A DNA stretch of 63,321 nt, counting the filler, from Klebsormidium nitens (Eukaryota; Plantae; Klebsormidiophyceae): assembly GCA_000708835.1 (NCBI GenBank). It is 3 parts of 3 records of this genome, joined end to end, with 100 filler letters (N's around TTAATTAATTAA, not from the genome) between each part and the next. Parts side by side here need not be neighbours in the genome. Positions count along the whole stretch, not along the records: positions 20,384 to 43,280 come from DF237885.1; 2 more parts are not named here. One strand, 5' to 3'. The first letter of the stretch is position 1. Each line of letters begins with the position of its first letter. Under the pieces are notes generated by a model. It did no database searches. It had not been told where the DNA came from and saw nothing but the letters and a program-made list of their open reading frames with translations. The translations under genes and the position numbers were made by a program. Below, piece after piece: positions 24,001 through 58,867 of this stretch.

Positions 24001-27000
24001 TCAATAATGCGAGCCCTTAAATGATTTCTGACGCAGTCCGAGCGATTCCGGAGACAAGGAAAAGTCAAAGCCTTTCAGCCACGTTTCCGTAAACTAGAAT
24101 GTCCTCCCCCTTGGAAGTTCTGCGATGGAGGGTTAAGTACGGGGTTAAGAATGTCCCGTTTTCGCAGTAGGGAATTTGCTGGGGGTAGTAGGGGGGTTAG
24201 TAGCTCAAGTTTCGATCTCGGTCAATGCGGTCAACCCGGTAAGGGTTTCGGCCAATAGGATCACGATCACTTACCATTTTTGGAACATGTCATGTCAATA
24301 AGGGAGGCAAACAGTAAGGAGCTCATCCGCAGAGTGCCACGTTCGCTTGAAGCTTGACCAATGAGTGGACACCAACTCGCCACGTGTCACGAGGTCAGAT
24401 GAAAGGCTGACGTGCCTCACCCAATGATCGAGACGGAATCCGTGACGACCCGGAACGGTCCGTAGGTGTCAAACAGCGCCCACTTGAGCGGCGGAATGGC
24501 ACCCACGAAAAGTGCGGCCAACTGCGCAGAAAAAAACTTTTATTCTCAGAAACCATTAAATTTTCGGTCACAATGAGCGTACACCCTCAGAACCGGCGCC
24601 TTTGTAAAGCGAGAGAGTGTGCGTAGCCAACCGCAGGAGGTTGTCCTCAAAAGGCAACACAATGGGTGGACAAGCCTGCTATCAGGTCGCCGCCAATGAA
24701 CCGGTCTTTCGACACCCGCTGCGTTCTGGACACCGGGCCGTCACGCGGGCAGCATTTCCCGGATTGTAACGACAGTGCATTCTCGGAAACGTAATCGTCC
24801 TCCCTTAACTGCAACGTGTATTTGTCTGTCGCAGAATGGAAAGTGCGTTCGCAACTCCAAATCCTGCCTTAGATTCTCTCCTGTGAATGGTAACCGTCCC
24901 AGGAAGCCAATGAAACATGATTCGCGCTTACGTGTATTCCAAGAAAAATGGTAGCATTGCTCGAACGAGCAGCGAAAAAGAGTCAACGAGCGACGGAAAG
25001 CTCACCGAGAGTGCGACTCAATGCAGAACTGTGTGCAGAAAGCAGAAGAAAACCAAAGACGTTTGCGGAACTCACCGCGCCGGCGATCGGCGGCCGCATG
25101 ATTTGATGCAGCCGCAAGAGCTTCGCGAAGCTCTTGACCTGCAGGACCGCGGGTCTAGGGAATTGGTTAAGAATGGTTCAGAATCGACTATCAGGGTTTA
25201 CAGAGATACCGTGTCAAACGCTTCAGTACCAGCAGAAGGTGATGCACCAGGGGCTTCAAGAGAATTCTGAATTCCTGGCGCGCTATCTTTAGAACCCAGA
25301 TTTCCGATTCTAGCTGTAAACCCAAGAAGGAAAGGAACAGTTTGCTCTAGCGTTCTGTGAAGGGTCTAGTCTGCTAGCGAACCCATCCTCAATGAGAAGG
25401 ACGCGCATGCCATCAGTGCACCCATCACAACGAACCCAACCCTCGTATTCAAATCGGACAGATCCGCCCCACATCTTTGGACATGCTTCAGGTTGGCTTG
25501 CGCTTCCCGGCCTAATAAAACGAGCGCAGGCTCACAGAGTCTTACACGGTCACAGGACCAAAGCTGTCAAACCGTGTCCTGACTTGGATTGTAACAGATA
25601 GGCAGAGGGACCTGCAGGCCCATGTTACTGACGCATTAAGAGGAACCTGGACCTTTAACCCTAGAACGAGACCGTTTCACTTGCCCCACCTTTTCGTAAA
25701 CGCTCCGGGTTAGTTTGCGCTCTGAATCCTCGAGCAGCGGGGCATGCAACCTACACGACCTTCAAACCATCGCCCTTGACTAAAATTTTGACCCACCTTT
25801 TTGTAAACGCTTCGGGTTAGTTTGCGGCTCCGAGTCGAAAAGCGGGGCGCGCAGGACCTTAAAATCAACACAACAGGGGGACCTGAGCCTCCTCAACCTA
25901 TCCCTTAACCCGCCCTTAACCCCGAAACCTCATCCCTTAACCCAGACCGTTTCGACCCACCTTTTTGTAGAGGCTTCGGGTTAACTTGCGCTCTGAGTCG
26001 TCGAGCAGCGGGGCGCGCAACCCGGTCGCGACGGAGAGGCGGCGGCGCGGCGTGGTCCCCATGCGGAGGGAGTGCTCCGCGGGGAGTTGGAGGGAGTCGT
26101 ACACAAGCGTCCACAGAATGATGGCGAGCGGCTGAGGGGACGATTCCAAGTATATTCTACTTTTTGCTTATTCCAGATTTGGAAAAGTCGCTTCCTTGCT
26201 TCCTCCCGTCTCTTGTGCGTCTCAGGGTGACAGAGCTCTGATTGGTGGTTATTCAACAAACATCGACGTTTCAGAGATCACGGGTTGGTTTGAATCTGCA
26301 TCCGGAACTCGGTTCGTGGATGGTCGGTTTTGTGGACAGAACGATGGCCAATAGCGGGAGAGAAACAAATTTGCTGATTCAGTTTCAGTACTCGACGTAA
26401 TGAGAATTGATTTTGGGAGTGTTGACGAGTCAAGAATTTTGATGTGGCATCATAGCTCTACGTCCGGATCAAACGGACTTTGAAAGAGCAAGTAAAGGGC
26501 ACGTAGGGTCGAAACAGGGGCTCGAACCATTCAACGCACGAAACCGGGGCTTGAACGATTTTGATTGTCGGTCCTTCCTGGTGTCAGGCAAACCGCCCCA
26601 ACAAAATGGTTTGACCGAGCGCTTTTAACGAGCCTGGCGAATTGTTCTTTCCAACTCTGTTGCAGTGAGAGTGATGTAGGTTATGGGTCCTTAAACGGCG
26701 AAACAAGAAGAAGTTGCGAGGCAAAAGCAAAGAAACAGGAAAGCGACAGGAAACGCGCGAAGTCGTATTCTTGGCAACTCACCCACATCCCAAAAGCAAC
26801 GTAAGATACGCCCCTGGCAAGACATGAAGCGGTGTCACCGAACGGGTTCGACGGGTCTTGGCACACGGCGGTCACCAGAACCAACGGCAGGTTGCCCATG
26901 TTACCTGAAATTGAAGGAAGCAGATAGTTTTGAAGACCTGGCGTTGATTGTGCCGTTCATCAGTGGGAAGGACTTGGCTTTCAGCCGCCATGAGATGTGC

Positions 27001-28976: not shown

Positions 28977-31900
28977 GGGTGTGAATTGGCTCTTTCTGAA
29001 GTACTGGTGTAAATTGGCTCACAGGGACTTGGTGGTGAGAATGGACAAAAGAGGAGACACTCCGGTTGGACTAGCGGAAGTGTGCGGTGTGAACTGGTCT
29101 GTGGATCACGTGGTGTGAATCAGCTTCAAGGGATTGGCGTGTGAATGGCCTTTGGAAAGCGGGATTGGACAGGCAGTCTGGTTTAAACAGGCTCCGGGAC
29201 AAACTCCTTCCTGATGGGGCTACTTGCGCCAATAGTTTTGAACAGGCTGATTAAATTCCAAAAGTTTCCTCCGCCCTTGCTTGACTACGTTAGTATGTAT
29301 GGTTTCAACGGATCAGGGAATTAGTACCTGCAAGCGCAAAGGCATCACCTCAGAGCGGAAGTAGTTGAGATTCCTCAAGAGATAAGAGTCAGTTTGATTG
29401 CAAGGCCGCTTGCTGTAAAACGAGAGGGACTTCCAAAAGTCAATCTGATGTAGAAACTCTGCCAAGGTTCAAAATACGAGCAGTCTGAGCTGCAAAAGTC
29501 CAAACTTCTAGCGGCCTAAATGACCTCCTTTGACAAGTCTAGCGCATACCCTCGTTGCTTGCGATCTGGAGTCATCGCAGGATACTATTCAAATCAATCA
29601 CATCCTTAAGGAAAAATGAAGATGTGATGTCCACTACGGATAATGTCTCCAGCGTGAGAACCACAGAATTGCGGCAATGCTGTCAATGCTGTCAATGCTT
29701 GTTTGTCCAAAACCACAAATCTGAAGATGTTATTACATATGAATTGAGATGAGCCCTCTGCCTGATCTGCATGTCGAGCACCCTTCAATAGATGGCCGCA
29801 GATTTACCGGTAGCGTTTGTAGCCAAGTAATCTGTGAACTGGGAGAGATGTACCTTCAAAGAATGAAATTGTACGGCAGATACAATTTCCAGGGAGCCCG
29901 CAGCCAGAATCTCGTCCTTCAGCCTAGATCACATTGAGACCAATGCAATTGAGTGAAACATTGTTTGTTTGCTTACCTGGCAAATTGAAAATCTCGATGC
30001 AAAGTCTGTGCAATAGGCGAATGCTGTGTCTAAACTTCACGTGTGCTCAATGCTGCCTAGGTTGGGACGGGCTTCATACAACTCAAAATGCAAAATTCCT
30101 CGCAGTGCATCCTGTCACTGCAAAACGCAGCCACCTAATGCAGCGCCTCCGACAATCCACTTTCTTTGGGAAGATGCTCATTCCAGTGGTCAACCAGCTC
30201 AAACCTCAACATTGATCCAAGCTCCCGAATTTGATCAGTGGCGAGAAGAGTGCGCAGACCTAGCGGTGCTTCGCACACATGCGAGCAGCATCTTCCTTTT
30301 GACTGGAAATTCCAGCTTTCAAGCCATGGATTCGAAACTTGGAACTTGGCAGTCAGTATGCACGCTTCTGGGGCTTTGACACCACCGTCCTTTTCTGTGC
30401 CCTGTTGGCAGGCTGTGTCAAAACAAAAGTTCGGCAACGCGGCGACGCCCTCACTCTAATTACTGGAGGGCGTCGCCAGCAAACTTTAGGGTCCGCATTT
30501 GTGGTTGCCAGAGAGCATTTAATGCTAACTCCATCGGACGATCCAAAGGGTCAGAGTTGGGGGCTGCCCCCAGCAAACCAAATGGAGTTCGACCTTGTTT
30601 TCAACCGCTCGATGGGCGCCACGTGTCTCCCCTGGCCCGAGGCTCGTGCGGTCCGCATAAATCGTGACTTTGCGCCGTCGAAGTGCAAAAGTTGGGTCAG
30701 TGCCGCTGGGCTGCCGGTTTTTGGCTACCGGCGGGCCTTTCCGACTAAAGGTAAGGTGGTGATCCTGTCCATGTTACCTAATGCCCATTGGTCTACCCGC
30801 TGATTGTATACGAATGGGCATTAGGAAAGCCCGGCCGCTATATTTCACCGCTTTTCATCAAAATAGCTCAGGTGGTTTTGAATCGATCTCAGACCTGCTG
30901 GTAAGTTGTCGCGACGTGAAGATCAGAAATTTTGTCACGAGCAGATGGATAGCATGCACGGACAAGCCCGCCGGAGTTGCACCATTTCTCAATCCCGGAG
31001 CTCAATCCGATTGAATAGGTCGTGCGGGGACAATGTAAAGACTCGCACAACCGGGCTAGCTTCTGCTCGCAACTTGTATAATCTGCAACTGACAGGATTC
31101 GAGATGCTTAGATGATAGATGCACAAAGCTTGCTCGGATACATATCGAGTATGGTCCGATTGACCACAAATGTTGCCTTCGCGCGTCATGGCATTCAAAC
31201 GTTCGTCACTACGGCGGTATGTGTATCGATCAAAGCGTAGAACAGATCCAGGCTTTGACTTGGTACCGTACGTGGAATTCGTAAGCATTTCATAAGGAGC
31301 TAGACCGGTTCTGCATGTTCGTATTCTACCCAACTGCATGGGCGATGCTTAAGGCATGCGCAATAACGTAAAGACTTCAGGTGATTCATGTAATGCACGC
31401 ATGACTCAATCAACTGATGGCAGTTAATGGAGCAGAGGAAAAGCATTCAAGGAATGTAAAAGAGCCATTAGCTGGCTGGTGGGATTGCATGGTACCGTGT
31501 GTTCTATTAAGACCATGAGATTAATTTTGGGTCAAATTAATATGAGAAGCAGAATAACACTATGTGTCTGTAGTACCTAAAGTCCACATGCATGACAGAC
31601 GCGCAAGTTGTACAGAAGTAAGGGGTACAAGTGCAGCTCGTCAATCATGCGAGAATAGCGAGAATCTGGGAAATCAAGCACCTCATCATGCAGGCACGTA
31701 TAGTTGTACATGATAGCCAATTGAATGCCATGAGGGTCTAGCTTTGAGAGCAAGAAGCATAACACTGAGACGAGCGTCTTGGTATACACACAGCTTGCGG
31801 TGTTCAAACAACATCTCACATTTACTCTCACCAACCATGCACTTAGACTCATATCGAAACCTCTACCCGAAACTTTATAGTGCCCTGCAGGCCCGTCTTA

Positions 31901-32566
31901 TGCAAATTTCTTTACGGCCACAACAAGCCCGGCCCGCTCCAACCGGCCCTTGTAAACCATACCCAAATCCCCCTTCCCGAGCAGGTTTTGACGGCGGGGC
32001 GTTGAACAGACTTCTTTTTACCGCCTATAAAGGAAGTATCTCATTCCAACTTTCACTCCTCACCTCCTTCGACGCCAAGCCAAGGTCGCGACTTCAACAA
32101 ACATCTGAATTTCTCTCACCAACTCTGTGTTACCTATGTGCCCCCTCTCTTGAGCCGCATTATTTCTTCCTTGAGCGCTTCGTTCTCTGACCGTAGTCGG
32201 GTTATCTCGTTCACGTTCGCCTAACATGGACAGAAAAGGAGCTCATAAGCCAAAGAATTGGAATCAGAGAAGCCTGACCTGTGCAAATTTCAATTTAAAC
32301 AGCAATAAATTCTCCAGAAACAGCTTGATGTAGCCAAAGAAATATCCAAATTCGATGTTGGATGTCAAACCAAATGAAAAGATATTCCAAGCCTTCAACC
32401 TTCTTTTTCAGGAAATGTGTGCCTTCTTCTCTTGCAAAACGTGAACACTCGTCTAAGAACTCGAACAGAAGAACCATGAGTTATGCGCATCTTCACTCAA
32501 TAAAAGAACACGCAACTCCTGTTTCATTCCAACTCTTCCCCTATCTAAAGAAGAAGTTGCTCTCTT

Positions 32567-34484
32567 CTAAGTAAAAAGATGAATCATATAAGTAGCCCAC
32601 ACCTTCAGAAGCTCTGCTCTCTTTGTTGACAGCAATCCACACCGCTGCAGCACGCTGAGAGAGTTTTCTGCCATGTGCTGTTCCATTGCCTGCGCCCGCT
32701 CAGCCCACACTTCATAAGGCTGCTCGCACATCTCCGGCAGCATGAGGGCCACAATCAACCGTAGTAGGCCGATCATGCCGTCGGGCCCCGTCTTCCGCCA
32801 GTAGGCCTCTCCGGAGCACCGCACCTTCGCTCTGACAGTGCCGTCTTTCTGCCGGTTTGCAATGACCAGCACCCCCAACCACCGCTCCCAGTCCGTTGGG
32901 AAGCCAAACCCTCTTCCAAACCGGGGGACAACCTCATCCTCTTGCAGGAGAGAAGAGGAGCTGGAGCTCCGGGTTAAGCCAGCACTACTGCTGGCAGCAC
33001 CTGAGTCACCATCGCTTTTCCGCCTCTTCTGGACGTCTATTGTTGCCTCAGCCTCGTCATCGAGCCGCCAGTTCTCCTCTAACTGCGCAGACACTCCCCC
33101 GATGCACTGGAAGAACCCCCCCCACTCTGTCTTCAAGTTCTTTTTCACCTCGGCATTGCCTTCGTGCCGCGTTGCCGATGGACCCTTTGCAGTGTGAACG
33201 CGCAAAACCGCACATTCGGTCCTCCCCTTCGTCTGCTTGCCAGTCACCCACTGCTCGTGGGATACAATCATTTCCGGCTCCAGCAGGAGCGCTTCGAATG
33301 CATCCATCACGTTCTGCTCGGCGAGATGCTGTGGATCTTCAGGAATGCTGTCCCCAACAAGACGCTCCTTGCTGGAAAACGCAGCTGCAGAACACAGAAG
33401 ACAGCTTTCAATAGTCTGCTTAAATTTGGATGAGCGATGCAGCCCTTGAAACGACTGCAGGTCCAGGGAATAACTCCAAAAATGCATACCATAATTGATC
33501 TAGAAGCCAGACTGCAGCTGTCCTTAAAAACTTTACAGCTCATCCAGCTTGTTGAGTGGATTTCATATGCAAGGCCACCAGATAACATCGGCACCCCTCA
33601 TTTGAAGCAGGATGACAAAAATATGGAATTCTTGAAGCAGGAGGCCACTAAGCACCATTAATTTTAGCACCTCAAGAAGCTGCAGGTGACAAGCCCCAAG
33701 CATACCTCAAGCCGGCAGGAACTTGTTTAAAGAAAGCTTGCACTCCTCATGCCAACTTCTTGTCAAACAAAGAATTGGAGTCTCTCTACTTACCGATGGC
33801 TGTAAGGAGTGTACACACATGCATGTACAACTTTCTTTCGTCGCAGCCCATGATGTTCTGGGAGCTGTCCCCATAAAACATGTACAACTCGGCAAGGTAC
33901 AGGAACCTGAGCGTCACGTCAGCCAAGAGGGCGACAGTCTCCTCGCCAATCTTTTCAACATCAAGATCCAGCGATCCTTTAAGGCCCCTGGATTGCCAGC
34001 GAATATCGTTCGCTTTTGCTGGAATCTCGAAGTCCCAGATCCACTGCGGAAATGCTCTACAGAGCTCTTCCTTCCCCTTGATCTCGCCCAGCGAAGGTCC
34101 TCCCCGTTCTGCTGCCGTCCGCTTCCCAACCACCTTCTCCTTGTGTGCTATTTCATCTGGAGAGGTTGGAGGTGTCCACTTCTGGAGTTGTTTAATCAGA
34201 AGGTTCATGTCATTCTCGTTCTTGGCAACTCCAGCTTGTTTGTATAAAGCTTTGACAAACGCGTGGAAGCCTTTGCCAACCTCGAAAAGCACAGTGGCAT
34301 TCTCAGGCAGACTTCTTTGTGGATCATATGTTGCAAGCGCCGCGAGCGAATCCCGGAGATGCTGCTTCGCCTCCACTTTTCCCAGACGGGATTCTTGTAC
34401 TGCAAGACTACCCCTTGTGAGCCTCCCATGACAGGCCTCCATGGCGGTGCGGGTTGAGTTTTCTGGGCTCTCAAATCCCCTCAT
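32567..34484 (-). CDS. Hypothetical protein, 2 exons (34484-33794, 33384-32567), about 500 aa
   Basis: Two long protein-like ORFs are joined by a phase-1 GTAAGT...TGCAG intron. I recognise no domain. Confidence 0.6.
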
Positions 34485-34558
34485 ATATTACCAAAACAGC
34501 AGATGCTGGCTACCTGTCAGTCTGATATGTACACTGTACGCACATGCCAAGGAACCTA

Positions 34559-34845
34559 CCGTACCCACATGACGCTTGGGCAGAAATTAATTATTTTCTG
34601 GCGTGCCCAAATTATTAAAAATAATTGGGTAAAATCTGCCCAATGTTTTCAAATCTTCAAAAATTTCAATATTCAATTTTCAATCCGCGATTCATTTTGC
34701 CCCATAAAAAAACAGGAATATGGCAATATCTGCATTTGCCCAAAGTTTCAAACGGATCAGAAAACGAGTTTGTGCTTGCCCAAACGCCGTGAGATACGTT
34801 AATAAATATTGTGCAAAAAAGTGCCCAAGCGTCATGTGGGTACGG
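34559..34845. mobile_element. MITE, Tc1/mariner-type (TA TSD)
   Basis: Perfect 24-bp TIRs CCGTACCCACATGACGCTTGGGCA (34559-34582 and 34822-34845), flanked by TA on both sides, with an AT-rich non-coding interior. Confidence 0.75.
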
Positions 34846-35489
34846 TACTTCCGTCCATGTATTTTGGCCGGTTCCGTCCATTTTGTCTTGTCGACGACGG
34901 CCGGAAAAATCACGCCTTACTTTTTCCGTCCGGCGCTCGGACAGACTGCAACTTCCGTCCACAGAGCTGCCCCGGGGTGCTTTTCCGCAGGGATCTCTAG
35001 CCGGTAGAGGCCACCGGGCATCGGAAAAGGCTCGAACGGGAACCCCGGCCTGGAGGTTCAGTCTTGGGCCCGTGAGTGGCCGGTGTGGGAACAAGAACAT
35101 TTTATATATGTTGTCCATTTTGGAGAGCCCATGAGGTTTATGGTTTTCACTGCCTAAGTGGGGGCCCGGGTGAAAGCAGAGCTACCTCCACAGCCCGGGC
35201 ACCGCCGATATGCTCCGGCGACCTCAGCACGAAACCCTCTTTCAATTTTGAGCTAACCCGGCTAAGTGGGGGGTTATTTGACACTCAATTAGTGCAGTAA
35301 CCCTCGCTGCCAGACCACTTCTTCAACGTCCACTTCCAGCTTTCACTTCCACCAACTTCCACCTTTTTCTACCGGGCACCTTGTACTTGATCGCATGGGG
35401 GGTTGAATAGAACCGGCCCCGGGGGCAGAATTTGCGAGAAAACAAAGCGTGTGTTCGCCCCCCACTGCCAGAGCGGACCGTAGCCCCCG

Positions 35490-35551
35490 CAGTCGATTTT
35501 TGCAATCTATATAGTCCTTTAGATATAGTTATTAGTCGCAAAAATCTACTG
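35490..35551 (-). repeat. 62-bp hairpin element, copy 1
   Basis: CAGTCGATTTTTGCA...TCGCAAAAATCTACTG, the reverse-complement orientation of the intronic copies downstream. Confidence 0.9.
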
Positions 35552-36142
35552 ATATTTTGGGGACCGTCCGCTGCAGACCGCGTCGATTCCCGACCGTTCG
35601 ATCGCGCGTCGACGGTTTTCCTAAAGCGGTTGCGGTTTCCTCCCCGGCGGGCCGCCGATGCTGACTCGGCGGGCAGCCGACATGTTCCAGAAGCTTCCAT
35701 TATGCTCCGATTGGTGGGGAAGGTGCTTCAACTCAGCACTTTCCCGCCTCTGTATTCAAACCTCAGTTGCCGACCAGCCGCTCAGGGGCGCAACAAAAGC
35801 ATCATCGCAAGTGCAGCGCTGCCTCCTCAAACTTGCTTTGCATCTCAGCGCCCATCGCAAACATGGCAGCACGACCGGTCCATGGCTTGCAATCAATGGA
35901 ACTTACAGTTTGCAGATTTCCGAAGAACTATGCGCCTATCAGGAACTCCGACCTCGGAGAGGCTCACCATGATGCTGCTGAAAGAACGAGCGCTTGCCTC
36001 TTGATCAACCAGGTGAGCTGTAAGAGCTCACCAACTCAGTCGTCAACCGAGGGTTTGCGATAGGTTCCAGCTCCATCACAAGGCCAGCTCCGGTCATGCT
36101 CCTGTTTCTCAGCTCCACTCCAGGATTTGGTGCGCCTGATTG

Positions 36143-36907
36143 TCAGAGCTCCCAATCAATTTGTGTATGCTTCCAGGCCATGGCTGCGGTCTCCCCATCA
36201 TCATCCTGCAACAGCGCATCGCTTTCAGAGGGCTCCTCCAGAGGCAGTCTAGACTCGTCCGACGGCGGTCGGATGCAGTCGCCGGTGAGCTTTCTATTGG
36301 ATTGCCTTCCAACCATCCATCGATGATTGATGCACGGTCCTTCCGAAGGATTGGCAGCTGTTGTTTGCGAGTCGTGCGGGATGCCTTGGGGGTTTCGTCT
36401 GAGCCTAGACTCCAGACAGGATTTGCGAGCTAGCGCGTGGTTCTGGTCCCCCCTCCTCTCGCCAGAGCCTCAGCAGTCGATTTTTGTCAGGTATATTGTT
36501 CTATAATCTATAGAGTTGTTTGCAAGAATCTACTGATTCCAAGTTCCTGCAACGCGTCAGCCCTAGCTAGAGAGGGGCGCGTGCCAGCTGGCGGTAAGCC
36601 TCACATGCTCGCGCAGAGTTTGCAGAGAGTCGGGAGTTGCGAGCTAGCGCGCGGTCCTCCTCCATCTCTTCCGGCTGACGGTCACCCAGTAGATTTTTGT
36701 CACCTATATAGTCCTAAAGATATAGAGTATAGTCGCAAGAATCTACTAATTTTTTGAGTGACCCCACGCCTTCCAGGTCGCGCTACCCATCAGCAATCTA
36801 CCGCACCCAGAGGGCTCCCCCGGGGTGGGCACCGGAACTCCGGGTGGCGGCCCTCCACAATCTCCGGTAACCAGCCACCCCATGCTCGTGGATGCGCTTG
36901 CTTCCAT
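36143..36907 (-). CDS. Possible small 2-exon protein (about 119 aa) with an internal TGDC..PP......EPS repeat
   Basis: Exons 36907-36763 and 36357-36143 join in phase 1 across an intron that contains hairpin copies 2-3. The donor GTCACT is weak. Confidence 0.3.
36420..36760 (-). repeat. Two tandem ~213-bp units containing 62-bp hairpin copies 2 and 3 (36474-36535, 36687-36748)
   Basis: Reverse complement of the unit arrayed at 40445-40969. It shares both the hairpin and the downstream GGTGACCGTCAG...GGAGGAGGACC...GCAAACTCTGCGCGAGCA...CCAGCTGGCAC tract. Confidence 0.88.
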
Positions 36908-37331
36908 GACTCTGCACGAGGAATCCAGCAACCCCTCTCTTGCAAAGCGCTATCGCCCGCGCCCCCGCCACTGCAAGATCCCATCATCCGTGGATCTAAC
37001 CTCTGACCTTGCGCTCCTCGCTTGCAGGAAGGCAACGGCGCGGATATTCACGGTGCATCCGAGTCCCGCTCGGACGAAGAAGACAGCACCGTCACCCAGC
37101 TTCCCACCCCAAAGCGCAGCAGGTAGGGGCGCTTTGCTAGGGGCTTCGCCCGCCTCCTCTTCGATCGCCAAGCTGCTCGTGCATCTTGCAAGCCCACACG
37201 AGTCTGTCGCAAGCAGGCCTCGCTCTTTCTGCACTCTGGACCTAATCGTTATTAGTACATTCAACAGGCGCACAGCAAACACTCAACTGCCAACGCACAC
37301 CGCTGAGACGAGCAGAAAGGCCGCCTCCTTC

Positions 37332-40300
37332 ATGGCCGAGCAGAAGGCCGATCTGAAAGCCGTTCGAGCCCGTCAGAGACGCGAACCCGGCAGAGCGCGC
37401 TCGGAGGACACGCTCGACGATGTTTTAAAGGCGGATGTGGATTTCGAACCTCGGCGCTGGGATTTGATGGACGGTAACTTCATCCGGGAAAAGCCACCCC
37501 CTAAACCGAAGGACACCCACAAGCAGAGCACGTTGCCGGAATGCCTGACCTCCGTCCAATCAGCAAATGCGGTGAGGCATGCCTGCGATAAACGCTCAGA
37601 AACTAGATGATGGAAAGCTCTTCCCTCACCCGTGCCCGCAGCTGACGACGAGTCTGCGAGCCTCGTCTTGCTCCCTACATTCCCGTCGGACCTCATCACC
37701 CCAAAGCTTGCCTCTCTTCTTTGCCAGTGCAATCATTGCATTGGTCCTCTCCTCAGCTTGAAGCGCTCGAGCAGCGTTTGCTTTTGCCGCCTTTGCGAGC
37801 TTCACCTCTTCCACGGAGTTCGTCATCGATATGTATGTTCACCACCGGAAATGTCCGACTGGCCTTGAACGTGCGGACCGTTCTGGGAACCCTCACCCTC
37901 GTGGCACATGAGGCGCTCCACGAGTGTGTTCTGGAGGAAATCCTATCATACCTGCAGATTCTGCCGCGAGTCGAATTCAACTGGAGGACCGAGGCGCAGA
38001 CCAGGCCAGGCCAGGAGCAAGGCAGGTGAAGCATCTGCCTCCAGCCTCTCGACCGCTTCGCTTGAGGGGCGGGGCAAAGCCCCTAGCAAAGCGCCATCGC
38101 GCCCCCCCCCCCCTTAGTTGTCAGTGCTTACGGATGCCAGTACTTTGCGTGCACATGTATCGTTCAATTCCCTCCCTTTGCAAGCTCGTGTTGTATAGGT
38201 CTGTCCTGGAAACCCATTTGTGAATATCTACATGTGTACATTTTCTTGCGGATTCCGAAATATCATAGGTCCTTTTGACTATCTGTCACACTCTTCCTCA
38301 GACGCGCACACCCGCAAGTCGAGCATACTCCCGCCATGAGCGAGCAGGCCGCGGAGCTCATGGCCAACAACAGAGAGGGTCTCCGCGCCTACGAGGTGGA
38401 AAGGGCAGCTGAGATCGAGGCCGTGCGGACCGGCCCCATCAGCAAGCCGGGCCCCTCAATCAGCTGCATGGGGGATCTGGCCGCCGGCATCGGAGCCAAC
38501 AGAACGACTCCGATCACGCAGGAGCGATCAACGCTGCGGGACTGGCTTGTCACGCAGGAAGAAACCCCCGAGGTAGGAGGCTCGTTTCGTGCTCGAGCGC
38601 GAGAGGCATGGTTCTCAAAAATTCAGTAGATTCTTGCGAAGAAGTATATAGACTATAGAACTAGATAGGTGACAAAAATCTACTGCTGAGTCTTTGGCAG
38701 GAGGAGGAAGGCGGAGGGCCAGACGCTGGCTCGCAGGCCAGCAATCGGTTGGGGTCCTTGCCCAGGAGTGAAAGGCTTATGGACCCAGTCAGCAAGCCAG
38801 TCAGTCCCCCTCTTGACCGGCGCACTCCCTGCTGGCCCCACAAAACAAACCGTTTTTACGTCTATGTTGAATGAGGTTTATTGAGTACTCTGTCAACCCA
38901 TGAGAGCAACATGTGCGGGGACTTACGGGTTCATTAAATGCATGCCTGGCAACCCCCTGAGCCTGGGATCCCCTGAGCCTACACCTGCTTTCCGAGCATC
39001 GAAGGTGCCATCGCCATCTCAATTGTTACACCGTTCCAAGCAAGTAGAAGCAATAGCTACTGAGTTGTTGGCCTGGTGCACATGGACATTCAAAGGTCGT
39101 TTCGAATTTTTGCAGCAGCTTCCGTCCGACGCAAGAGGCGAGAGCATCGATGACACCATGGAGGGCTCCGCAGACGGTGGTGACTCTGAGGCAACCAACA
39201 GCAAGCGTGAGGACGTGAGCATGTGTGTGCAGTCACGACCGGAGATCGACGCTGCAGGACAGTATTGGTTCACCACGGAAAAGCCGCTGGAGCAGTGCCG
39301 ACGGACGATGGCGGCTGGCGAAGACCGTATCTTGATCGTCTGCGACGTGTCGAATCACTCGGGGGCGAAGAAGTACGGCAGCATCCGTGACCCGTCCGCC
39401 CTGCAGGACTACGTCACGCGCCGCAAGGAGATGAGCCTCGGCCACCCCAATCTGTACGAGGGCTTGACCGAGGGCCTGCCGACCAAGCTGTACGCGGACA
39501 TCGATCTGCGGACGGCAAGCAAGGTGGCGGGGGACTTCGAGCGGTACAAGAGACACCTGGACGAAGTGAGAGACGCCTTCCTGGTGGACGTGCTAGGCAT
39601 CCCACCCGAGAGCATCCGGTTCGAGGCCAGCGAGGCGCACGGGGACGCGGCCGATGGCGGTTACAAGTGGAGCATCCACGAGCTGTTGCGCGGATACTAC
39701 CTCGAGAACTTCCACGCCCGCAACGAGTTCAAAAAGGCCTTCGAGCACTTCCAGAGGAACCTCTCCGCGCACCTCCAGCACTGCGACGAGTACCTCTGGC
39801 ATACGCCCGACCCCCAGACAGGCCCCAAGCTGATCTGGGACCCCTCTGTGTTCGCCAAGTTCAAGTGCTTCCGGATGCTCTACTCCCGAAAGAGGGGGTC
39901 GGACCGGCCCCTGCTCCCCGTCGAGGGAAGCTCCCCGCAGCTGCTGGACCACCTGGTGGGCATCTACTCGGCGGAGGAGCTCGCGTCTCTGACGAAGATC
40001 GACGTTGGAGTGCTGGAGCGGTACAACCAAGAGGTTGGGGTGGACGCGGGAAAGCGGCGCGAGATCCCTCGCCGTCACACTACCCGGGTCGCGGTGGAGG
40101 GGGGCTCAGTCGAAGGCGGAACTCGGGACGACGCGTTAGGCGCGCCTCTGACCGCGCATGAGCTGGAGCGTCTGACGAGCGTTTACAGGGAGGACCATCC
40201 CGGGGCGGAGATCCGGACCACTCTGCAGGTCGCCACCGACGTCTTCACCCTTCACTTCCGCATCCAGCAGCCGATGTGCCGCATCCTTGGGGCCGCGCAC

Positions 40301-43155
40301 GACAGCGACGGGAACAACGGAGGGTACCTCGTGTATAGGCGGAGCGATCCGACGGTGGCCTACTACAAGTGCCACTCCGCGCGGTGCAGGTGAGCTTGCT
40401 GGTTACCGCGGGCTGGCATGCGACTTGGTGCAGGACATTGAAATCAGTAGATTTTTGCGACTATCTCTATAGACTATGGGACTATATAGGTGACAAAAAT
40501 CGACTGCGTGACCGTCACCCGGAAGGATGGAGGAGGACCGCCCGCTGGGTGGCAACTCCTGACTCTTTGCAAACTCTGTGCGAGCACGTGTGGCATGCCT
40601 CCATTTCTTGCAATGGCACCAGCTGGCACACGCCCCTCTCCAGCTAGGACTGCCGCTGTGCAAGAACTTGGAATCAGTAGATTTTTGCGACTATCTCTAT
40701 AGACTATAGGACTATATAGGTGACAAAAATCTACTGGGTGACCGTCAGCTGGAAGGATGGAGGAGGACCGCCCGCTGGGTGGCAACTCCTGACTCTTTGC
40801 AAACTCTGCGCGAGCACGTGTGGCATGCCTCCATTTCTTGCAAGTCACCAGCTGGCACACGCCCCTCTCCAGCTAGGACTGGGCACCGCTGTTTAGGAAT
40901 TCGGAATCAGTAGATTTTTGCGACTATCTCTATAGACTATAGGACTATATAGGTGACAAAAATCTACTGGGTGACCGACAGTCGGAAGAATGATGGAGGA
41001 CGGCGCGCCAAGTGGCAACTCCTGACTGAACAGCTTGGTCTCCATGCAGTGGTACCGTGCGGCGGCTGCAGCTCCAAGTCCACAAAATACCCGGGTGGTC
41101 TGAGGACTATATGGATTCGAGCGGCATGCGGTCGTACCCCCTATTTGACATCAAGAGAGGAGCCCCGAAGCACACGGTCTTGGTGACAGCAAATAAAGGC
41201 ATTGGGAAATCGAAGGAGAGCTACGATTGGCTGTGGAAGATGCTGCAGCGGAACGAGGGCGTGGGTGTCGTCATCATTGCTGCCAACATTGCCCTGGCAA
41301 AGAAGTGTGAGTCGGACCTGCGGATCGAGTGCGAACGCAAGATGAGAGCGGGCCTCTGCCTGTACGGGCTCGACCTGTTCGTCAACTACCTGGACGCGCC
41401 CGGTGGCGACATCAAACAGCCGAGGGTCATATCCTGCATCAACTCGCTCCACCGAGTGCGATCCAGCCCGGCGATAGTCATCGTCGACGAGGCGGACATG
41501 GTGCTCGCCAACTGCAACTCCGACGTGATGACGAACCGGAAACAGGTCTTCATGGCCGCTGAGCGCATCATGGGAAACGCCCGCATCCTCATCGCGATGG
41601 ACGCGCACATCGACTGCCCAAGGGTCCTCGAGTGGTTCTACATGGTTCGTCCGGACAGTGAGCTGCACTCGATCCGGAACGCCGGCGTACACCCGAGCCA
41701 GCTGGGGAGGACGGCCACCATCTACCGACTGCCGAAGTTGAAGAACTTGGAGCTCACGTGCGCCCCGGCCGTTGCGCGCACCCTGGAACTTTTGAAGAGC
41801 GGCCTGAAAGTCGGGGTGAGTGTCTCAAAAAATCAGTAGATTCTTGCGACCAATCATATAGACTATAGGACTATATAGATTGCAAAAATCTACTGCTGAG
41901 TCTTTGGCAGGAGGAGGAAAGGAGGAGGACCACACGCTAGGTTGCAATTCGTGTGGCCGGTCGCTCTCGAGTCAGAGCTCTAACCCTGGTCGCACATGCC
42001 ACAGGCACCCTCGGCTAGCCTGCGCTACGTGAAGCAGCTGACGGAGGCCGCCGCTTCAGAATTCGGGCCATCAAAGGATGTGAAGGCATTCCACGGCGCG
42101 CAGAAGTCTCCGGAGGACAAGAAGCGTCTGTTTCAAGCCGTGGCGGAACCGGACGTGCACATGCTGGCGGATTTGATGACCCACACATCGGTCATAGGCC
42201 CGGGAGTATCAGTGGAGAGGCCTTGGTATGACACGGTGGTGGCGCTGGCTTACAATAGCTCCTTCCACCCGGACGTGTTCGCCTTCATCCAGATGCTCTT
42301 TCGGCTTCGCATCGCGGGGCCCATGGATATCTACCTCAGCGCCGACAACCCGCGCAACTGCCAGCCGGCGTGCTTGCCCACGACGAAGGAAGACGTCTTC
42401 CGAGCGATCGAGGATGAGGACGAGGAACTTCGCAAAATGCTAGGGTCCACCGACCACCTCGACTTTCTTGTCAGACGACGCGGCAAGCGGGCGATATGCA
42501 ACCGGGAGTCTGCCACGTGCGTGTTGTACGCCAACAACGTGCTCGCGAGATGCGACAGCATCCGCCACTACCTGAAGATCATGACGGAGGATCTGCAGAA
42601 GCAGGGGCTGACGGTCATCGAAAAGGGAGCACCGTGTGTGGAGACCGAACATGCTCCACCGGAGGCTTGCGATCCCGATGCAGAGCTGACGGCTGAGGAG
42701 TGGCGAAACAAGTACGTGGTTCACGGGGACCAATACTCGCACCTCAAGGTGCTGGAGGAGTCGCAGGACGTTGGCTTACTCGAGCTGAAGCAGATCAAGC
42801 TGTACGAGGCGATCCATGAGTTTTACAAGGTCGACCCCGCGCTGGTCGACTTTGACTTCTTCGACGAGTTCTGCGCGGAGGATGACAAGAATCACGACAT
42901 GTATGGGAATTACATGAGGTGAGCATTGACTCAAGGGAGGGAGCTTTCCTACTAAGCTGATGGCGTTTGATTGGTTGTCCGGTGGAAGCTTTGTCCCTGC
43001 AATGATTATTGTCGAAACATTCAATCGATGCTTTTACTATTGCCTCTCACAGGTTCCGCGAGCTCTCCCGCGACCAGATCGCTGCGGGGCTTTGCAATCC
43101 GCTGAAGGAAGCCGATGCGGTGGGCGTTACTCAAGACTATCTGGCGGAGCTGTGA
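37332..43155 (+). CDS. AEP (PrimPol-like) primase fused to a herpes UL9-like origin-binding SF2 helicase, spliced, over 1250 aa, 3' end possibly truncated
   Basis: Phase-consistent exons 37332-37571, 37757-38025, 38302-38572, 39116-40389, 41050-41815, 42005-42918 and 43053-43119/43155. AEP motifs: KLYADIDL, SIH, WDPSVFAKFKCFRMLYSRK, then a Cys/His segment (C..H...GGY...YKCHSARC). Helicase motifs: VTANKGIGKS (Walker A), ISCINSLHRV, IVIVDEADMV (Walker B), LIAMDAHID, FHG, THTSVIGPGVS, QMLFRLR. The first two exons are less certain than the 39116-42918 core. Confidence 0.8.
38624..38685 (+). repeat. 62-bp hairpin element, copy 4 (intron 3 of the primase-helicase)
   Basis: CAGTAGATTCTTGCGA...GTGACAAAAATCTACTG, followed by CTGAGTCTTTGGCAGGAGGAGGAA as in copy 8. 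Confidence 0.9.
40445..40969 (+). repeat. Tandem array of ~230-bp units making up most of intron 4, with hairpin copies 5-7 (40445-40506, 40675-40736, 40908-40969)
   Basis: Near-identical units with periods of 230 and 233 bp. Confidence 0.93.
41834..41895 (+). repeat. 62-bp hairpin element, copy 8 (intron 5)
   Basis: CAGTAGATTCTTGCGA...TTGCAAAAATCTACTG, starting 18 nt after the donor at 41816. Confidence 0.9.
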
Positions 43156-43280
43156 CGATTACGTCTGGTTAAGCCTAACCTCGTTCTCGTCAGGATTTCG
43201 TTAGCTGCTTGTTAGCGAAACGACAGCGGTTACGTCTTAACGGCGCGCTGTGAGACCGTTGATGTACGGCGTTCTATCCA

Positions 43281-43380: not shown

Positions 43381-43565
43381 CTCGGCCGGTAATCTCGGCG
43401 GTCTACCACTAACCACACACTAGTGGACTAACCCTAGACTCTATCCGCGGCGCGCGCGCCGGGCTTGCAAGCCGGCCGCGGCTCGCCCTATCGCCGCCAC
43501 GTGGCACGTCTGCGCCACGTGTCGCTATCTGGACACTACCCGGCACGGACCGCCCTCGGCATGGC
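43381..43565 (-). mobile_element. Fragment of the Gypsy terminal (LTR-like) sequence
   Basis: Reverse-complement match, roughly 80% by eye, to 60280-60461 (for example CTCGGCCGG..ATCT.GGC.GTCTACCACTAACCA.ACACTAGTGG and ACACTACCCGGCACGGAC). Confidence 0.75.
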
Positions 43566-43879
43566 ATTTCAAAGATATATTTGTGCAGAGTCAAGGTTTC
43601 CCTCAGCCTTTAGTAGTCCGCCTCATCGAGACCTACGGGGGCGTTCGACGGCTAACAAATAGTGGACTGAATAGTGTTCTTCCAATTTATCGGAATCGAA
43701 TGCCAGCTTCTGATTTTACAGGAGTTTTAGGGTTGCGCCGCCCGGAACTCTCGACTTCATTTCTATCCATCGCTGAAAGCTAGGGCTCTCTTCAAGGCAG
43801 TTGCAGGTCTCCATTGCGTCCAACATTTGCAGCTCCGAGCGCTCATCATGAGAGAAAAACGGAACGTGCTATGTGCTTT

Positions 43880-45218: not shown

Positions 45219-46768
45219 GTGGCTGGGGCGGCGGTGCTTGCTGCCAGTCCAGCTACAGCTGGCGGCACTGGAAAGGAGAAGGCACAAGGGGGTGCTAGCA
45301 GCAAGGCCGCGATTGGCAAGCATGCAACGACCGCGGGTGAGCAATCCGCTTTCAAGATTTCCAAAGGACCGCATGGGTTCATTTCCCACACTCTGATGTA
45401 TGATCGCTCTTTGGTATACAGTGCGGTCAATCTCAGCTCTAAGCAGCTTATTCCGTTTTCGTGGCAGACGGTTTATTTACAAAAAACGGGTCATGAGTGC
45501 GCTAGGATATTGCACTATTTCAGTTGGAAGCAGCTTATATGGGTCTCTGCTGACTCGAGCTCGAATTCTTGTTTGGAACCCCGGTGCACATGCTCAATAT
45601 GGTGGGCTTTCATCTTGAGTATATATGCACTTGCGGAGACGTTGTGGGCAAAAGGGCGCAAACCTCAAGGCAGCGACAAGCGGCAAGGGAAAGGCACTGG
45701 AGAGTCATACTACACAGGCTGGCAAAGGTACGGAAGTCATGTTCACCTCATTCCGCAGTTCCTACGAGCTTTGGATTTTGAATCTTTGGATATGGATCAA
45801 GCGCACGCTCTACCTTTTGGGCTTTTGCCAGGTTGTGCTTTCATGTTTCAAGCAAGATGCTTCCGGTTAATTCATTGACCATGTTTCGAAAGGCTCCAAG
45901 CGTAAGGCGCCGGAAGGCGCTGCCTCTGGCAATCCCCAACTAGAGAAGAAGGCGCGTCGGTACAGGCCGGACACCCTAACTCTTAGGGGGATCCGCAAGT
46001 ACCAGAAGAGCACGGACCCGCTCATCCCGCGGCTCTCGTTTGCTCGTCTCGTGCACGAGCTATGCGATGCAGAGACTGCCCGGCGACCTGGTACCAACGA
46101 AGACGGCAAGTTTAGGCATGCAGTTCCACCTGGCTTGGAATGCCTAGGTGTTGATACGGCGTGAGCTGAAGCAAGTGGCTAGATCGATCGACGTCTCCAA
46201 GTATGGACGTGGAATATTCAAAAGTGAGCAATTCTTCTTATTTTTGAGAATCGTGCGGATTCGAGGCTGTCACCCCTTTATCATCGTGCTGATCCGAGTT
46301 GGCAAGCTTGCCTCTAGGTAAAAGGCGTCGGCGTTGGACGCCCTGATTAAGGTAAGTCGGGACTTTGTCGTAGGGTTGTTCGGTGACGTGATCTTCTGCC
46401 AGGCGCACGGCAAGCGGAAGACCCTTCACACGAAGGATCTGGACCTAGCGCGCAGGATCCGCGGGATTCGGAACGAAGACAACACTCTGCCCTTGCAAGC
46501 CGCCGTGGAGCACGGCCTTGGGCACAAACGTGAGAAGGTCGGGTACGAGCCCGGCAAAGCGGATGAAAAGAAAAGGAAGTCCGCAAAGCAAACCGAACGG
46601 GAGGCAAGAGAGAGGGCGACAAAGGATGTTAAATGGGTTCAGAAGGCGGAGTTGCAGCGCCAGACGCGAATGGCTGCGGAGCGCGCGGCTCGGGAAGCTG
46701 CGCATGGGCCTCAGGGAGGGGCTAAAAGGTCAAAGCAGAGTGGAAAGAGGGAGAAGAGAGCGGCTTGA
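45219..46768 (+). pseudogene. Divergent histone H3-like gene with Lys-rich N-tail and coiled-coil C-extension, premature stop
   Basis: About 45945-46115 reads [39 protein letters not shown]. After an intron, 46318 onward reads R*KASALDALIKVSRDFVVGLFGDVIFCQAHGKRKTLHTKDLDLARRIRG, aligning to H3 helices aN, a1, a2 and a3. TAA at 46319-46321 falls where W or F is expected. Confidence 0.75.
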
Positions 46769-47988: not shown

Positions 47989-49197
47989 TCAAAAAAACTT
48001 GCCGGAGGTCGTTCTGTTCGAATACTTGTTGCACAGGCGCTTCACGATCCGAGCGAATGTGCTTCGTGGAATGAGGAAGTCCGTGCTCTTCTGTTTCTTC
48101 CTAAATTCTCTGAGAGCTAAGGTGCCTAGCTTGTACCGCCGCAGCTTCTTCTCGGGCCGAGAGGGCGTGGTCGCCGCCGATGCTTTCTGCCTGCCTCCAA
48201 CCACCGCCTTTCCACTGCCTCCCTTCGCGACCTTCTGCTTCCCCTCCCCAGCTGCCGGGTTCTCGATGGCGCCCGTCGGTGCCACTTTCTTTCTTTTTTT
48301 GGCATCCCTTGAGCCCTTCTGCCCCGTGGCCTCTACTGCCTCCGGCTTACCTGCAAGCACCGCCGCCCAAGCCACCGGCTTCTTGCCCCCCACCACGCCC
48401 CAGACGCTTGATGGCTTCCGACGTGTTGCTTTGCTTCGCCGCTTCTTTTGAGGCTGCTTGCCGGCCGTCACAAGTTCTCTCGAGATCTTCCCGAAGCTTT
48501 TTATTGATGCCTTGTGCTTCTTGTGCTGCTCCGCTGGGTCCACTTCCCAAACAGGCTCTCCCAACATCGAATGCAGCTCCTCCCTTCTTTCTTCCTCAAC
48601 CTCTGCGGGCGCTTCCTCCCCTCGTGCATGCTCCATGAACATCAGGTTTTCTTGGAGCTCCGATTTGGTGGGCGCATCGGGATCGTCTTCCCCTGCATTC
48701 AAGTGTCCGCTTTTAGGAGGATCGTCCTCATCAGGTTCTGAGTCTTGGAAGGGTTTTTCAAATGGAGCATTGTTCCGTGCAATTTCGTCAAGCTCCGCCT
48801 GGTATTCTTCTGGGATCATAATGCCCCGCTCCTTTTGGACTTCTTCCGGAGCCCCTTCCTCTGTCTGCACGGTCACTGGCGGAGGAGATTGCTCCCCGCT
48901 GACTCGCTCTGCAAACTGTGCTTGATAATGAGCTTCTGCCTCCGTTTTATTCTCTCGAGACCACTTTTTTTGCGCAGCTAGAGTTTCCACGTATGACAGA
49001 TAATCCTTTGGTCCCCAGGCGCCTCGAAGGCCAAACTCTTCACGCTCTAGTCTGTCGATTGCAGGTTCGGACTCACTCGGGACTTGCGCCTTCCCCGAGT
49101 TCTCATAGTTACCAACTTCATCCTCCGGCGCGGCCACCTTCTCCGCTTGGTGGCCCCGTTGCAATTTTGGTCGCATGCTGATGCGCGGCCTTTGCAA
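47989..49197 (-). pseudogene. Second H3-like gene: ~340-aa acidic then basic N-terminus plus H3 aN/a1, fold incomplete
   Basis: The ORF ends in KKLRRYKLGTLALREFRKKQKSTDFLIPRSTFARIVKRLC and stops at a T7 run. Helices a2/a3 are not recognisable. K/E-rich degenerate frames continue to about 47356. Confidence 0.7.
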
Positions 49198-49560
49198 ATG
49201 AAGGAAGCGGTGGAAGCTTGCAGCTGATCAAAAGTGGCGCCCTTTAAGCGAAAGAGACCACGAAAAATAACATTTGACAGACTTTTGACGAAGTTGTAAT
49301 GGATTGTTCAATTTTAGGGTTTGTTTAGGGTTTCACACGCTCGGGAATGTCAAACTCCCGCTCTTTTACTTGAATTTGGACGATATAGCTCTGCAACTCA
49401 TGTTGGTCGACTCAAGGCTCCCAAAATCGAAACCGGACGAAAGTCGACGGATAGCGGGCCCCAATATTCGCTGCAATCTGTCAAGCTATCGAAATCGAAC
49501 GCAAATTACGAAATGTCTTGGATAGACTTTTAAAGTCGGCCCATGCACGGCCAAATCTCC

Positions 49561-53393: not shown

Positions 53394-55088
53394 TGTTGAA
53401 AGCAAGCGCCTTTCAAGTGCACAACTACTAGGAATGAGTGTGGTTCTTTTGCTGCATGAGTCCAAGTGATATTGCCTAGCTCAAGTCTAGCAATTACCCC
53501 AGGTGTTTCAATCGATAAATCGACGGTCCCTATTCGATGTTATCTCACGGGATAGTTATGGTGCTTTTTAGCCCGGGGGAAAATTGCCAGAGACCAATTT
53601 AAGTCGGGCGCGCGCCGTAGCATATTCCCACAGTATCGCAAAATTCGGCCGGCGGAACTCCGGTGAGATGTAGGATCTCTGTGGGTACTTCGTGCGATAT
53701 AGCCCCCGTGAAAAGGTCATTTGCCCCCAAATATTGCTCTTCTATTGCATTTTAGCACTGAAAATGGCCTTGAAAGATAGCTACAAAAAGTGCATGTTTT
53801 AGAGACATGTCTGTGGGAAACTTCTACAGTACGTCCATGTTGATGTTGACAAGACATGCTGAAAGTTGAATAGCATTCTCCTAAGCTTTTGTCACAAAAC
53901 TAGAGCCATTCTTCTTCATAATAGCTTTGGTGGTGAACCACCATTCTTCTTGAATTTCGTAGGAAGATGGTCATTTGACACTTTGGTTCCGTCCGGTCAA
54001 AAACGCTCGTAGGTGGGGGCACTTTCCAGTAGGCCGGGATCGGGGTCCCAGGAAGTGAGGTAGGTACTTGAGAACAGAGCTTGTAGGTACGTACCCTGGT
54101 CCCTACCGGTAGGTGGAACCTGTCCCGGGGCCTTGCATACATTACTTACCTATACTGCCGGGCTGCCCGGTGATTCACAACGGTCACGCCAAATTTCAAA
54201 CTCAATTTAGGTAGTACCGTATTGACCGTAGTACCTAGACACGCTAGACACTGCCTAGGTACATTAGTACACCCGTATCTAGGTACCGTACGGTTCGTAC
54301 CTACCACCTTGGTAGCTTGAGGCAAGGCAACAATGTATATCTGAAGGTACCGTACAACCTACCGCAGTCATAAATCTGGCTACAGTACCTAGCAGCTACT
54401 AAATACGGTACCTACCTTAGCTAGTATCTAGCTAGCTAGGTACTAGTGTACCTAGCTACCATACTAGCCTCGGTACCTACCTTGTAGCCTTAGGTTCGTT
54501 GCCTACTGAGCAGTGTAATCTTGCTAATTTGGCCCGAACATGTGTCGAGACTTGCAGTGTTTGTCGCTCCTAAGTAACACTACGGGTACTTTTGCCTGCA
54601 TGCTACAAAGCTAAAAGCGGGTGATTTTCGATACGAACTAGTTTCCGGGGAAATTGCAATCGCAGGAACCGGAACGTCACCAGCCGAATATTGCCCCAAT
54701 TTTCCGGCGGTTCTGCGTGCCGCATGAAATGTTCGGGCGCAGTTCCGGCGAGAGCACGGCGCACGGACAAGTAATTATTCGTGCGAGATTTCCACGCTTA
54801 ACGCGCGAAACCTGCCGCAACTTTCCATTGGGCAGGAGAGCACCGTAATTGCCCGGCCCGTGCTACAAAAGAACCCATCGAACGGCTACACCGAAATACA
54901 TGCCACATAAGAACCCATGAACAATGGACTCAATCCTACGGCTTACGTTTCGCACACCCTACGGTGGATATTCAATCATGCGAGCTCACAATCGTACTGC
55001 CGACCTTATGCATCCAACCTACGATTCTATGGACGATATATCATAGGATATTAGGGCGTACTTAAGGCTAGTACCGCCCAAATCTAAC
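53394..55088 (-). repeat. Copia 3' LTR (about 390 bp, interrupted by a 1.3-kb insertion)
   Basis: On the minus strand it follows the pol stop and the purine tract GTGGGAAGAG, begins GTTAGATTTGGGCGGTAC and ends ...GAAAGGCGCTTGCTTTCAACA. Confidence 0.85.
53556..54862. mobile_element. Non-autonomous DNA transposon with CACGGG...CCCGTG ends inserted in the copia LTR (CMC/EnSpm-like)
   Basis: Absent from the sister LTR (CTATTCGACGATGCCTACAAAAG is contiguous there). Imperfect TIRs, apparent 2-bp TSD CT, no ORF. Confidence 0.6.
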
Positions 55089-55109
55089 TCTTCCCACGCA
55101 CAAAGTATC

Positions 55110-58611: not shown

Positions 58612-58867
58612 GGTTATAGCTAGCAAAAAACAACGCTTCTCCGGCTGGGCACTCCTTTGTGCGTAGAGTGGTTTGTGGGTATTTTCACCGGCGTCGCGAG
58701 ATGGAGTGCTACTCCACTTCTTTAGCCCCCACTGGAATACCTCTCACCAACCTAGAATTGTTGTTGCTAGCAACGGCTTACTATTCTCCTCTCACTCCAC
58801 AGCATTTTGGGCCCAAAACTGTTGAAAGCAAGCGCCTTTCCCCCCCCCCCCCTTTTCCGGGGGTCAC

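Follow-up and report, generated by a model that had tools for sequence, protein, structure and literature searches.

We describe a spliced gene at positions 37332-43155 of a 63-kb stretch of Klebsormidium nitens DNA (63,321 nucleotides, here called the window). The gene joins an AEP primase to a UL9-like helicase, is truncated at its 3′ end, is part of a multi-copy family, some members of which are broken, and carries a gene-specific array of dyads. Seven exons from an ATG at 37332 to a stop codon at 43153-43155 form one uninterrupted open frame across six canonical introns, as the original prediction had it; the frame holds 1,211 codons rather than the more than 1250 then counted. The third-position G+C content (GC3) of exons 1-6 lies between 0.68 and 0.84, bearing out their description as GC3-rich. 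Adding upstream exons at 35863-36012 and 36177-36284 and a longer exon at 36777-37571 extends the open frame to 1,482 codons, and the gene probably starts further upstream than ATG 37332. Translation of this low-complexity extension is predicted from exons that we regard as probable, and 10 of the 21 substitutions in the upstream exons fall at third codon positions.

Contigs from public sequencing runs skip five of the six introns: 1 and 2 in run X1, 3 and 6 in X2, and 4 in X4. None of the three runs is labeled as RNA on its record; we took them as RNA because their contigs skip GT..AG introns. The X4 contig across intron 4, which separates primase from helicase, skips 660 nt between GT and AG with 36 nt on its short side and shows 0 differences over 41045-41232, confirming that splicing joins the primase and helicase exons. 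An X1 contig (37265-37570) is spliced to the exon starting at 37958, and an X4 contig joins exon 35863-36012 to exon 36177-36284 across GT..AG. Intron 5 (41816-42004) and the predicted intron 36285-36776 are absent among the contig joints listed, an absence that proves nothing.

The spliced protein contains the AEP motifs DxD, SxH and WD..FR, a C-H-C-C finger and the superfamily 2 (SF2) helicase motifs GxGKS, DE, MDA, SVIGPGVS and QMLFRLR, among which we take Walker A and B and helicase motifs III, V and VI to be represented. The AEP motifs, Cys/His segment and herpes-type SF2 motifs originally read here are thus all present. The first helicase exon matches Pfam Herpes_ori_bp (E = 9.6e-13) over DEAD (E = 4.5e-4, below the DEAD cut-off), its best matches in the ESM Atlas are Herpes_ori_bp, and the family profile matches solved UL9 chains (E = 3e-9). 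The exon at 42005-42918 is 37% identical to K. nitens GAQ89318.1 and 23% identical to an intronless protein, P0038.

The AEP exon has no Pfam match, and a single-sequence phmmer search against the Protein Data Bank returned no match. Single-sequence folding of the AEP domain reached a predicted local distance difference test (pLDDT) score of only 35.6; an AlphaFold2 model built from a 21-sequence alignment reached 82.9. Among predicted viral structures (Foldseek/VIA), this model matches pithovirus primases (1.9e-16) and F1055L of African swine fever virus (ASFV; 7.3e-14); it also matches the Bodo saltans virus origin-binding protein (9.1e-14), the primase of Ostreid herpesvirus 1 (E = 2e-9) and the solved structure of vaccinia (poxvirus) D5 (Z = 16.9). 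The DxD, SxH and motif III Asp of the exon align with PrimPol. Along its whole length the protein lines up collinearly with AEP-UL9 proteins of 1,040-1,190 aa that have no introns, at ~21-26% identity over 700-1,000 residues. Judged by its sequence and modeled fold, the protein is an AEP of the type found in PrimPol and nucleocytoplasmic large DNA viruses (NCLDVs), a Cys/His finger and a UL9-like SF2 helicase in one polypeptide, and the catalytic motifs read as intact in this copy.

The stop codon at 43153-43155 is not the natural end of the gene, because it lies inside an inserted repeat that begins at 43151. Two contigs of a further public run, X3, follow the gene to 43150 and go on to read an in-frame R-D-R-P-Q-N-K-V-L-F that lines up with the end of GAQ89318.1. 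An X4 contig starts exactly at 43151, and the same repeat occurs in X3 with a different left flank. The repeat has an LTR-like (long terminal repeat) TG start and many variants in public contigs. Alignment of 33 long relatives around this end shows the 31 without introns continuing for another 119-169 residues beyond the window stop; for the two annotated algal proteins the figures are 56 (a partial model) and −7. The complete C-terminal domain is absent in this copy, not necessarily across the family, and about 120-170 C-terminal residues have been lost to the insertion. Neither the lost piece nor a second copy of the gene was found elsewhere in the window. Because the C-terminal domain of UL9 binds the origin (accessible text of PMC12543377) and these residues are lost, this copy is probably defective and unable to bind its sites. 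Of the bounds first proposed, 37332-43155, the start probably lies further upstream and the stop is supplied by the repeat.

A full HMMER scan revealed 41 relatives of the AEP exon; word-indexed protein searches yielded no relatives of greater length for this exon or the first helicase exon. Organism names were taken from 30 relatives and their cluster members, and K. nitens is the only one named, with relatives on four scaffolds (GAQ92101.1; GAQ89317.1/GAQ89318.1; GAQ88463.1; GAQ92586.1). GAQ89318.1 has the same AEP-finger-UL9 order (37% identity), and Herpes_ori_bp is present in each of the 55 proteins that the family profile returned. The helicase module has been swapped within the family, since GAQ92586.1 (P0051) pairs the same AEP lineage with a D5-type SF3 helicase. 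A quick IQ-TREE run placed 19 AEP rows in one group (Shimodaira-Hasegawa-like approximate likelihood ratio test, SH-aLRT, 99) with about six deep branches, one of them fused to the D5-type helicase. It used 80 rows, leaving out fragments below 150 aa and P0082 (a duplicate of viral locus L003), with the careful search unfinished; a FastTree run used 48. Both trees are provisional, have long branches meeting and draw on a sample biased towards relatives of P0038. One intronless relative shares its 548-kb contig with capsid and PolB genes of NCLDV type. No direct relatives were found in IMG/VR viral contigs (for two window exons or P0062), in JGI metagenome contigs (for P0006) or in INPHARED phages.

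The copies are dispersed, and some are decayed. Contigs of run X4 identical to the window (0 differences, 41045-41232) occur beside divergent ones (25 differences in 247 nt, 40099-40345), and four of the 11 close relatives (62-90% identity) shift frame within the exon, while a fifth has only an out-of-frame match. Several relatives at ~30-40% identity end their frame just after the last Cys of the finger, as the window gene does. Contigs of run X3, mostly 85-99% alike, span most bins from ~35.3 to 43.2 kb, introns included; they also cover known repeats and none of the neighboring host gene at 31.7-34.4 kb. X3 is probably DNA, and we read its coverage as a low-coverage assembly of multi-copy DNA, in which holes prove nothing. 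Three K. nitens members, P0012 (GAQ92101.1), P0023 (GAQ88463.1) and P0051, have a hydrophobic stretch far upstream of the AEP (at residues 120, 332 and 86) that ends G-x-V-E/D-x-N/H-P-G, a motif we take to be 2A-like and did not find in the window copy.

The original prediction missed eight 62-bp imperfect palindromes, all of which lie in introns of this gene or upstream of it (Table 1). In all eight, 13-bp arms stand exactly 36 bp apart around a spacer that is 61-72% AT and variable in sequence. Of the 17 half-sites in the window, 16 belong to these dyads, and a profile search of the remaining 57 kb of the window and of the viral loci turned up no more of them. Five independent dyad sites fall within 6.4 kb of the 63 kb (p ~5e-4). 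The tandem unit of dyads 5-7 fills intron 4 (Tandem Repeats Finder: period 230, 2.5 copies, 92% matches), and the dyad flanks are homologous for ~110 bp on one side. A reading of the 62-bp dyad as a miniature inverted-repeat transposable element (MITE) was rejected, as the flanks show no target duplications. No metagenome or viral contig matched the pattern exactly, and Rfam gave no match at E 0.5. The matches of two out-of-frame relatives run on across arm-like sequence into intron 4, which suggests that other family copies carry the dyad too. In the accessible text of PMC12543377, OriS of herpes simplex virus (HSV) has an AT-rich spacer, the length of which is important, between inverted boxes, and the algal dyads have this layout of inverted boxes and an AT-rich spacer of fixed length. 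An X4 contig of 842 nt (record 11) aligns at 36158-36286 and 41060-41095, linking upstream-exon sequence to a forward dyad unit and then to the first part of the helicase exon, after which it leaves the window sequence; it may be an internally deleted derivative from recombination between dyads, or an alignment artefact.

Table 1. Coordinates of the gene, its dyads, the inserted repeat and the repeated unit within the window.
Feature	Position	Strand	Remarks
Minimum repeated unit	35310..43150	+	Left limit estimated from bin depths; right arm lost
Dyad 1	35490..35551	-	Upstream of gene
Probable first coding exon	35863..36012	+	In frame with the rest; X4 contig 35867-36008, 0 differences
Probable second exon, Ser-rich	36177..36284	+	In frame
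Dyad 2	36474..36535	-	Predicted intron 36285-36776
Dyad 3	36687..36748	-	Predicted intron 36285-36776
Exon holding ATG 37332; low-complexity N-terminal region	36777..37571	+	Open frame 36762-37610
Introns 1-6	37572-37957, 38026-38301, 38573-39115, 40390-41049, 41816-42004, 42919-43052		All GT..AG
Small exon	37958..38025	+	Both bordering introns joined in X1
Exon, N-terminal region	38302..38572	+	Spliced to 39116 in X2
Dyad 4	38624..38685	+	Intron 38573-39115
Exon with AEP primase-polymerase domain and Cys/His finger	39116..40389	+	Model, structure matches, motifs
Dyads 5-7 (at 40445, 40675, 40908)	40445..40969	+	Tandem; primase-helicase intron
Exon with first half of UL9-like SF2 helicase (Walker A and B, as we take them)	41050..41815	+	Pfam Herpes_ori_bp
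Dyad 8	41834..41895	+	Intron 41816-42004
Exon with helicase motifs IV-VI and start of C-terminal domain	42005..42918	+	Sequence matches
Last exon, cut short	43053..43150	+	Intron 6 joined in X2
Inserted repeat	43151..43280		Starts TG, supplies stop codon, runs into gap

To the left, the unit adjoins a spliced gene at 31741-34487 (-) with deep contig support (0-1 differences) and no Pfam match, and matches to a K+ transporter and Med21 lie further left. A 291-bp MITE-like element at 34557-34847 has perfect 26-bp terminal inverted repeats and occurs with other flanks in X3. Three small families of 54-95-bp direct repeats occupy 21766-22948 and 25669-26022. To the right come the insertion, a gap, two histone-fold open reading frames (ORFs), a copia element and a PHD-bearing ORF. 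The divergent histone-fold genes, at 45943-46768 (+) and 47989-49227 (-), face each other in a repeat-rich region; they match Pfam Histone (E = 6e-7 and 2e-8), appear H3-like on reading, match each other in inverted orientation and may be mobile-element cargo. One of them has ~350 extra N-terminal residues. A repeat just after the gap (43381-43566) recurs inverted 16.7 kb away at 60278-60463 (85%). The copia-type element at 53394-59280 (RVT_2, rve, gag_pre-integrase, zf-CCHC) is enclosed by nested inverted repeats (144-220 bp, 91-94% identical), an arrangement unusual for an LTR element. Sequence before the PHD-finger ORF (59673-60128, E = 1.3e-9) reads to us like the decayed tail of a retroelement integrase.

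A Pfam search of 151 of the window's 158 ORFs of at least 100 aa (the other seven span runs of N, and short spliced exons could escape such a scan) revealed no capsid, polymerase, recombinase or transposase match. The original prediction saw no capsid, integrase or transposase in the window, which holds for these ORFs except that there is one integrase match, at ~55.6-58.5 kb in the separate copia element. The viral hallmarks capsid, PolB, packaging ATPase and VLTF3 were likewise not found in the 151 ORFs, the right arm of the unit being cut by the insertion and gap. No long inverted repeat brackets the repeated unit, whose right end is missing.

The gene is a 3′-truncated, still spliced copy of a multi-copy primase-helicase family, and we favor, with moderate confidence, the reading that this family supplies a selfish, virus-derived DNA element with its replication module. 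Of the two origins offered by the original prediction, a mobile element is favored over domestication by the insertion that cuts this copy short, by the multiple copies of the family, some of them frameshifted, and by the gene's own dyad array; "self-synthesizing" is an overstatement, as no DNA polymerase gene was found. The earlier observation is thus partly confirmed and its interpretation partly supported. In the proposed mechanism, an intact copy would bind both inverted 13-bp arms with its C-terminal domain, much as UL9 does with Boxes 1 and 2 of OriS. Melting of the 36-bp AT-rich spacer would then fall to the helicase, and primer synthesis to the AEP. Host polymerases would then complete synthesis, since no polymerase gene was found, and new copies might re-enter chromosomes either by means of an integrase from the lost right arm or when host repair takes up freed copies. 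Mobility, and with it the spread of the unit as a selfish element, is inferred; neither ends of an element nor a target duplication, and neither an integrase nor a transposase, could be located for it.

This negative result weighs against an element, as do several other observations. Human PrimPol is the best solved match of the AEP model (E = 3.9e-10, Z = 21.3, root-mean-square deviation 3.0, 229 residues aligned). The original prediction would have yielded to a best match with host PrimPol or a conventional DEAD/RecQ helicase; the first was found for the AEP, whereas the helicase prefers Herpes_ori_bp to DEAD. The PrimPol match speaks against a plain viral assignment, but PrimPol lacks a helicase and belongs to the same NCLDV-herpesvirus clade, and the algal protein follows the intronless AEP-UL9 proteins collinearly throughout. 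In the provisional trees the algal proteins occupy a long branch, and no viral donor can be identified for them. Metagenome copies from several strains, and frameshifts from assembly errors, may explain some of the divergence and decay. Among the listed inverted repeats of two viral loci (in L003, the best 25 of 179), there is no comparable repeated dyad array. Four of the six dyads tested fold as hairpins well against shuffles (z −3.0 to −6.9) and two fold no better than shuffles (z −0.9 and −1.2); the latter scores fit a duplex site, not a cruciform, and the conserved trait is therefore the fixed spacing, not pairing. The dyads could be binding sites for the protein, and they could also be an unrelated short repeat. 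Lastly, the K. flaccidum assembly is reported to contain several diverged multi-gene NCLDV inserts (PMC5294986, section 3.3).

The protein architecture itself is already known. In the accessible portions of two preprints (bioRxiv 10.1101/2024.02.29.582850; 10.64898/2026.08.29.747986), AEP-UL9 fusions are reported for mimivirus R8, ASFV pF1055L, Ostreid herpesvirus 1, mriyavirus SF2_hel (in some mriyaviruses) and SmDNAV. These viral proteins share domain order and intact AEP motifs with the algal gene, which differs in being nuclear, spliced (6-8 introns), equipped with a long low-complexity N-terminus, multi-copy, free of visible viral neighbors and, in this copy, truncated. HSV-1 UL9 shares the SF2 helicase type, and its OriS, as given in the accessible text of PMC12543377, resembles the algal dyads in its inverted boxes around an AT-rich spacer. 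Unlike the algal protein, HSV-1 UL9 has no active primase; its origin binding is proven, whereas dyad binding by the algal protein is predicted, and HSV has few, intergenic origins where the algal gene has eight dyads in introns and upstream. Eukaryotic PrimPol, a two-domain member of the NCLDV-herpesvirus AEP clade in the accessible text of PMC4538821, shares clade, fold and C-terminal finger with the algal protein, but lacks a helicase, which in the alga is spliced on, and is only 17-18% identical to the algal AEP.

Polintons, Polinton-like viruses and Helitrons are eukaryotic DNA elements that carry their own replication protein. Unlike these, the unit lacks any protein-primed PolB, capsid, integrase, HUH nuclease or terminal repeats that we could find. 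The K. flaccidum inserts, probably from the same genus, also hold virus-type replication genes in several diverged copies; in the accessible text of PMC5294986 viral genes (PolB, capsid, ATPase, VLTF3) predominate in them, whereas the window yielded no such gene. We found no description of a spliced, multi-copy nuclear AEP-UL9 form with intronic dyads in a literature search covering few subscription papers and not Repbase, and none linking Klebsormidium to UL9, although figures of PMC5294986 may list these scaffolds; the accessible text of PMC4889955 does not mention UL9. The 3′ truncation, the intronic and upstream dyads, and the multi-copy, nuclear, spliced family with its frameshifted copies and D5-type branch are new here.

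The strongest alternative, which we nonetheless hold to be unlikely, is that the locus is a fragment of an endogenous large DNA virus with introns, resembling NCLDVs or mirusviruses, with the dyads as its origin or repeat array and the rest once lying to the right, past the insertion and gap. Element ends, integrase and capsid were not found and the right side of the unit is cut and gapped, as this reading allows; the nearest non-algal relatives are intronless, one of them on an NCLDV contig, several diverged NCLDV inserts exist in K. flaccidum (PMC5294986, section 3.3), and intron-rich nuclear mirusviruses are described in the accessible portion of bioRxiv 10.64898/2026.08.29.747986. Yet the repeated unit of at least 7.8 kb has yielded one gene only, the 151 ORFs hold no viral hallmark where the K. 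flaccidum inserts are dominated by viral genes, and the left neighbor at 31.7-34.4 kb is spliced and matched by contigs with 0-1 differences, with the K+ transporter and Med21 beyond it.

Domestication, in which the alga would use the protein for re-priming or repair as a PrimPol-like primase equipped with a helicase and the extra copies would be ordinary duplicates, appears improbable. It would account for the canonical introns, the high GC3, the splicing in public contigs and the PrimPol-like fold, and the frames that end after the finger's last Cys in relatives of ~30-40% identity suggest an old intron. It sits poorly with the truncation of this copy, the frameshifts in many close relatives and the swapped helicase in one branch, and a gene-specific dyad array would be unexpected in a repair gene. 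Least probable of all is that the dyads have no tie to the protein and came into the introns as a short mobile repeat or by local duplication: their arms start CAGT, like some transposon ends, the unit duplicates as a 110-230-bp block in both orientations, and X1, X2 and X4 contigs join dyad sequence to other contexts, but there is no copy in the other 57 kb and no Rfam match, the flanks are homologous rather than target duplications, and the spacer keeps its length while its sequence drifts.

Returning to the selfish-element reading, we raise only tentatively the possibility that the family represents a new class of nuclear replicons without capsid or polymerase, built on one spliced primase-helicase gene with interchangeable UL9- or D5-type helicases and intronic origins, and long diversified in streptophyte algae. 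In the accessible parts of the literature examined, viral AEP-UL9 fusions have no defined DNA target, and the eight dyads of fixed geometry give a concrete candidate site for binding, melting and priming. If the unit does move without capsid or polymerase, it would add a replication strategy to those of eukaryotic mobile DNA, and it would illustrate one route by which a giant-virus replication gene can persist in a lineage close to land plants.

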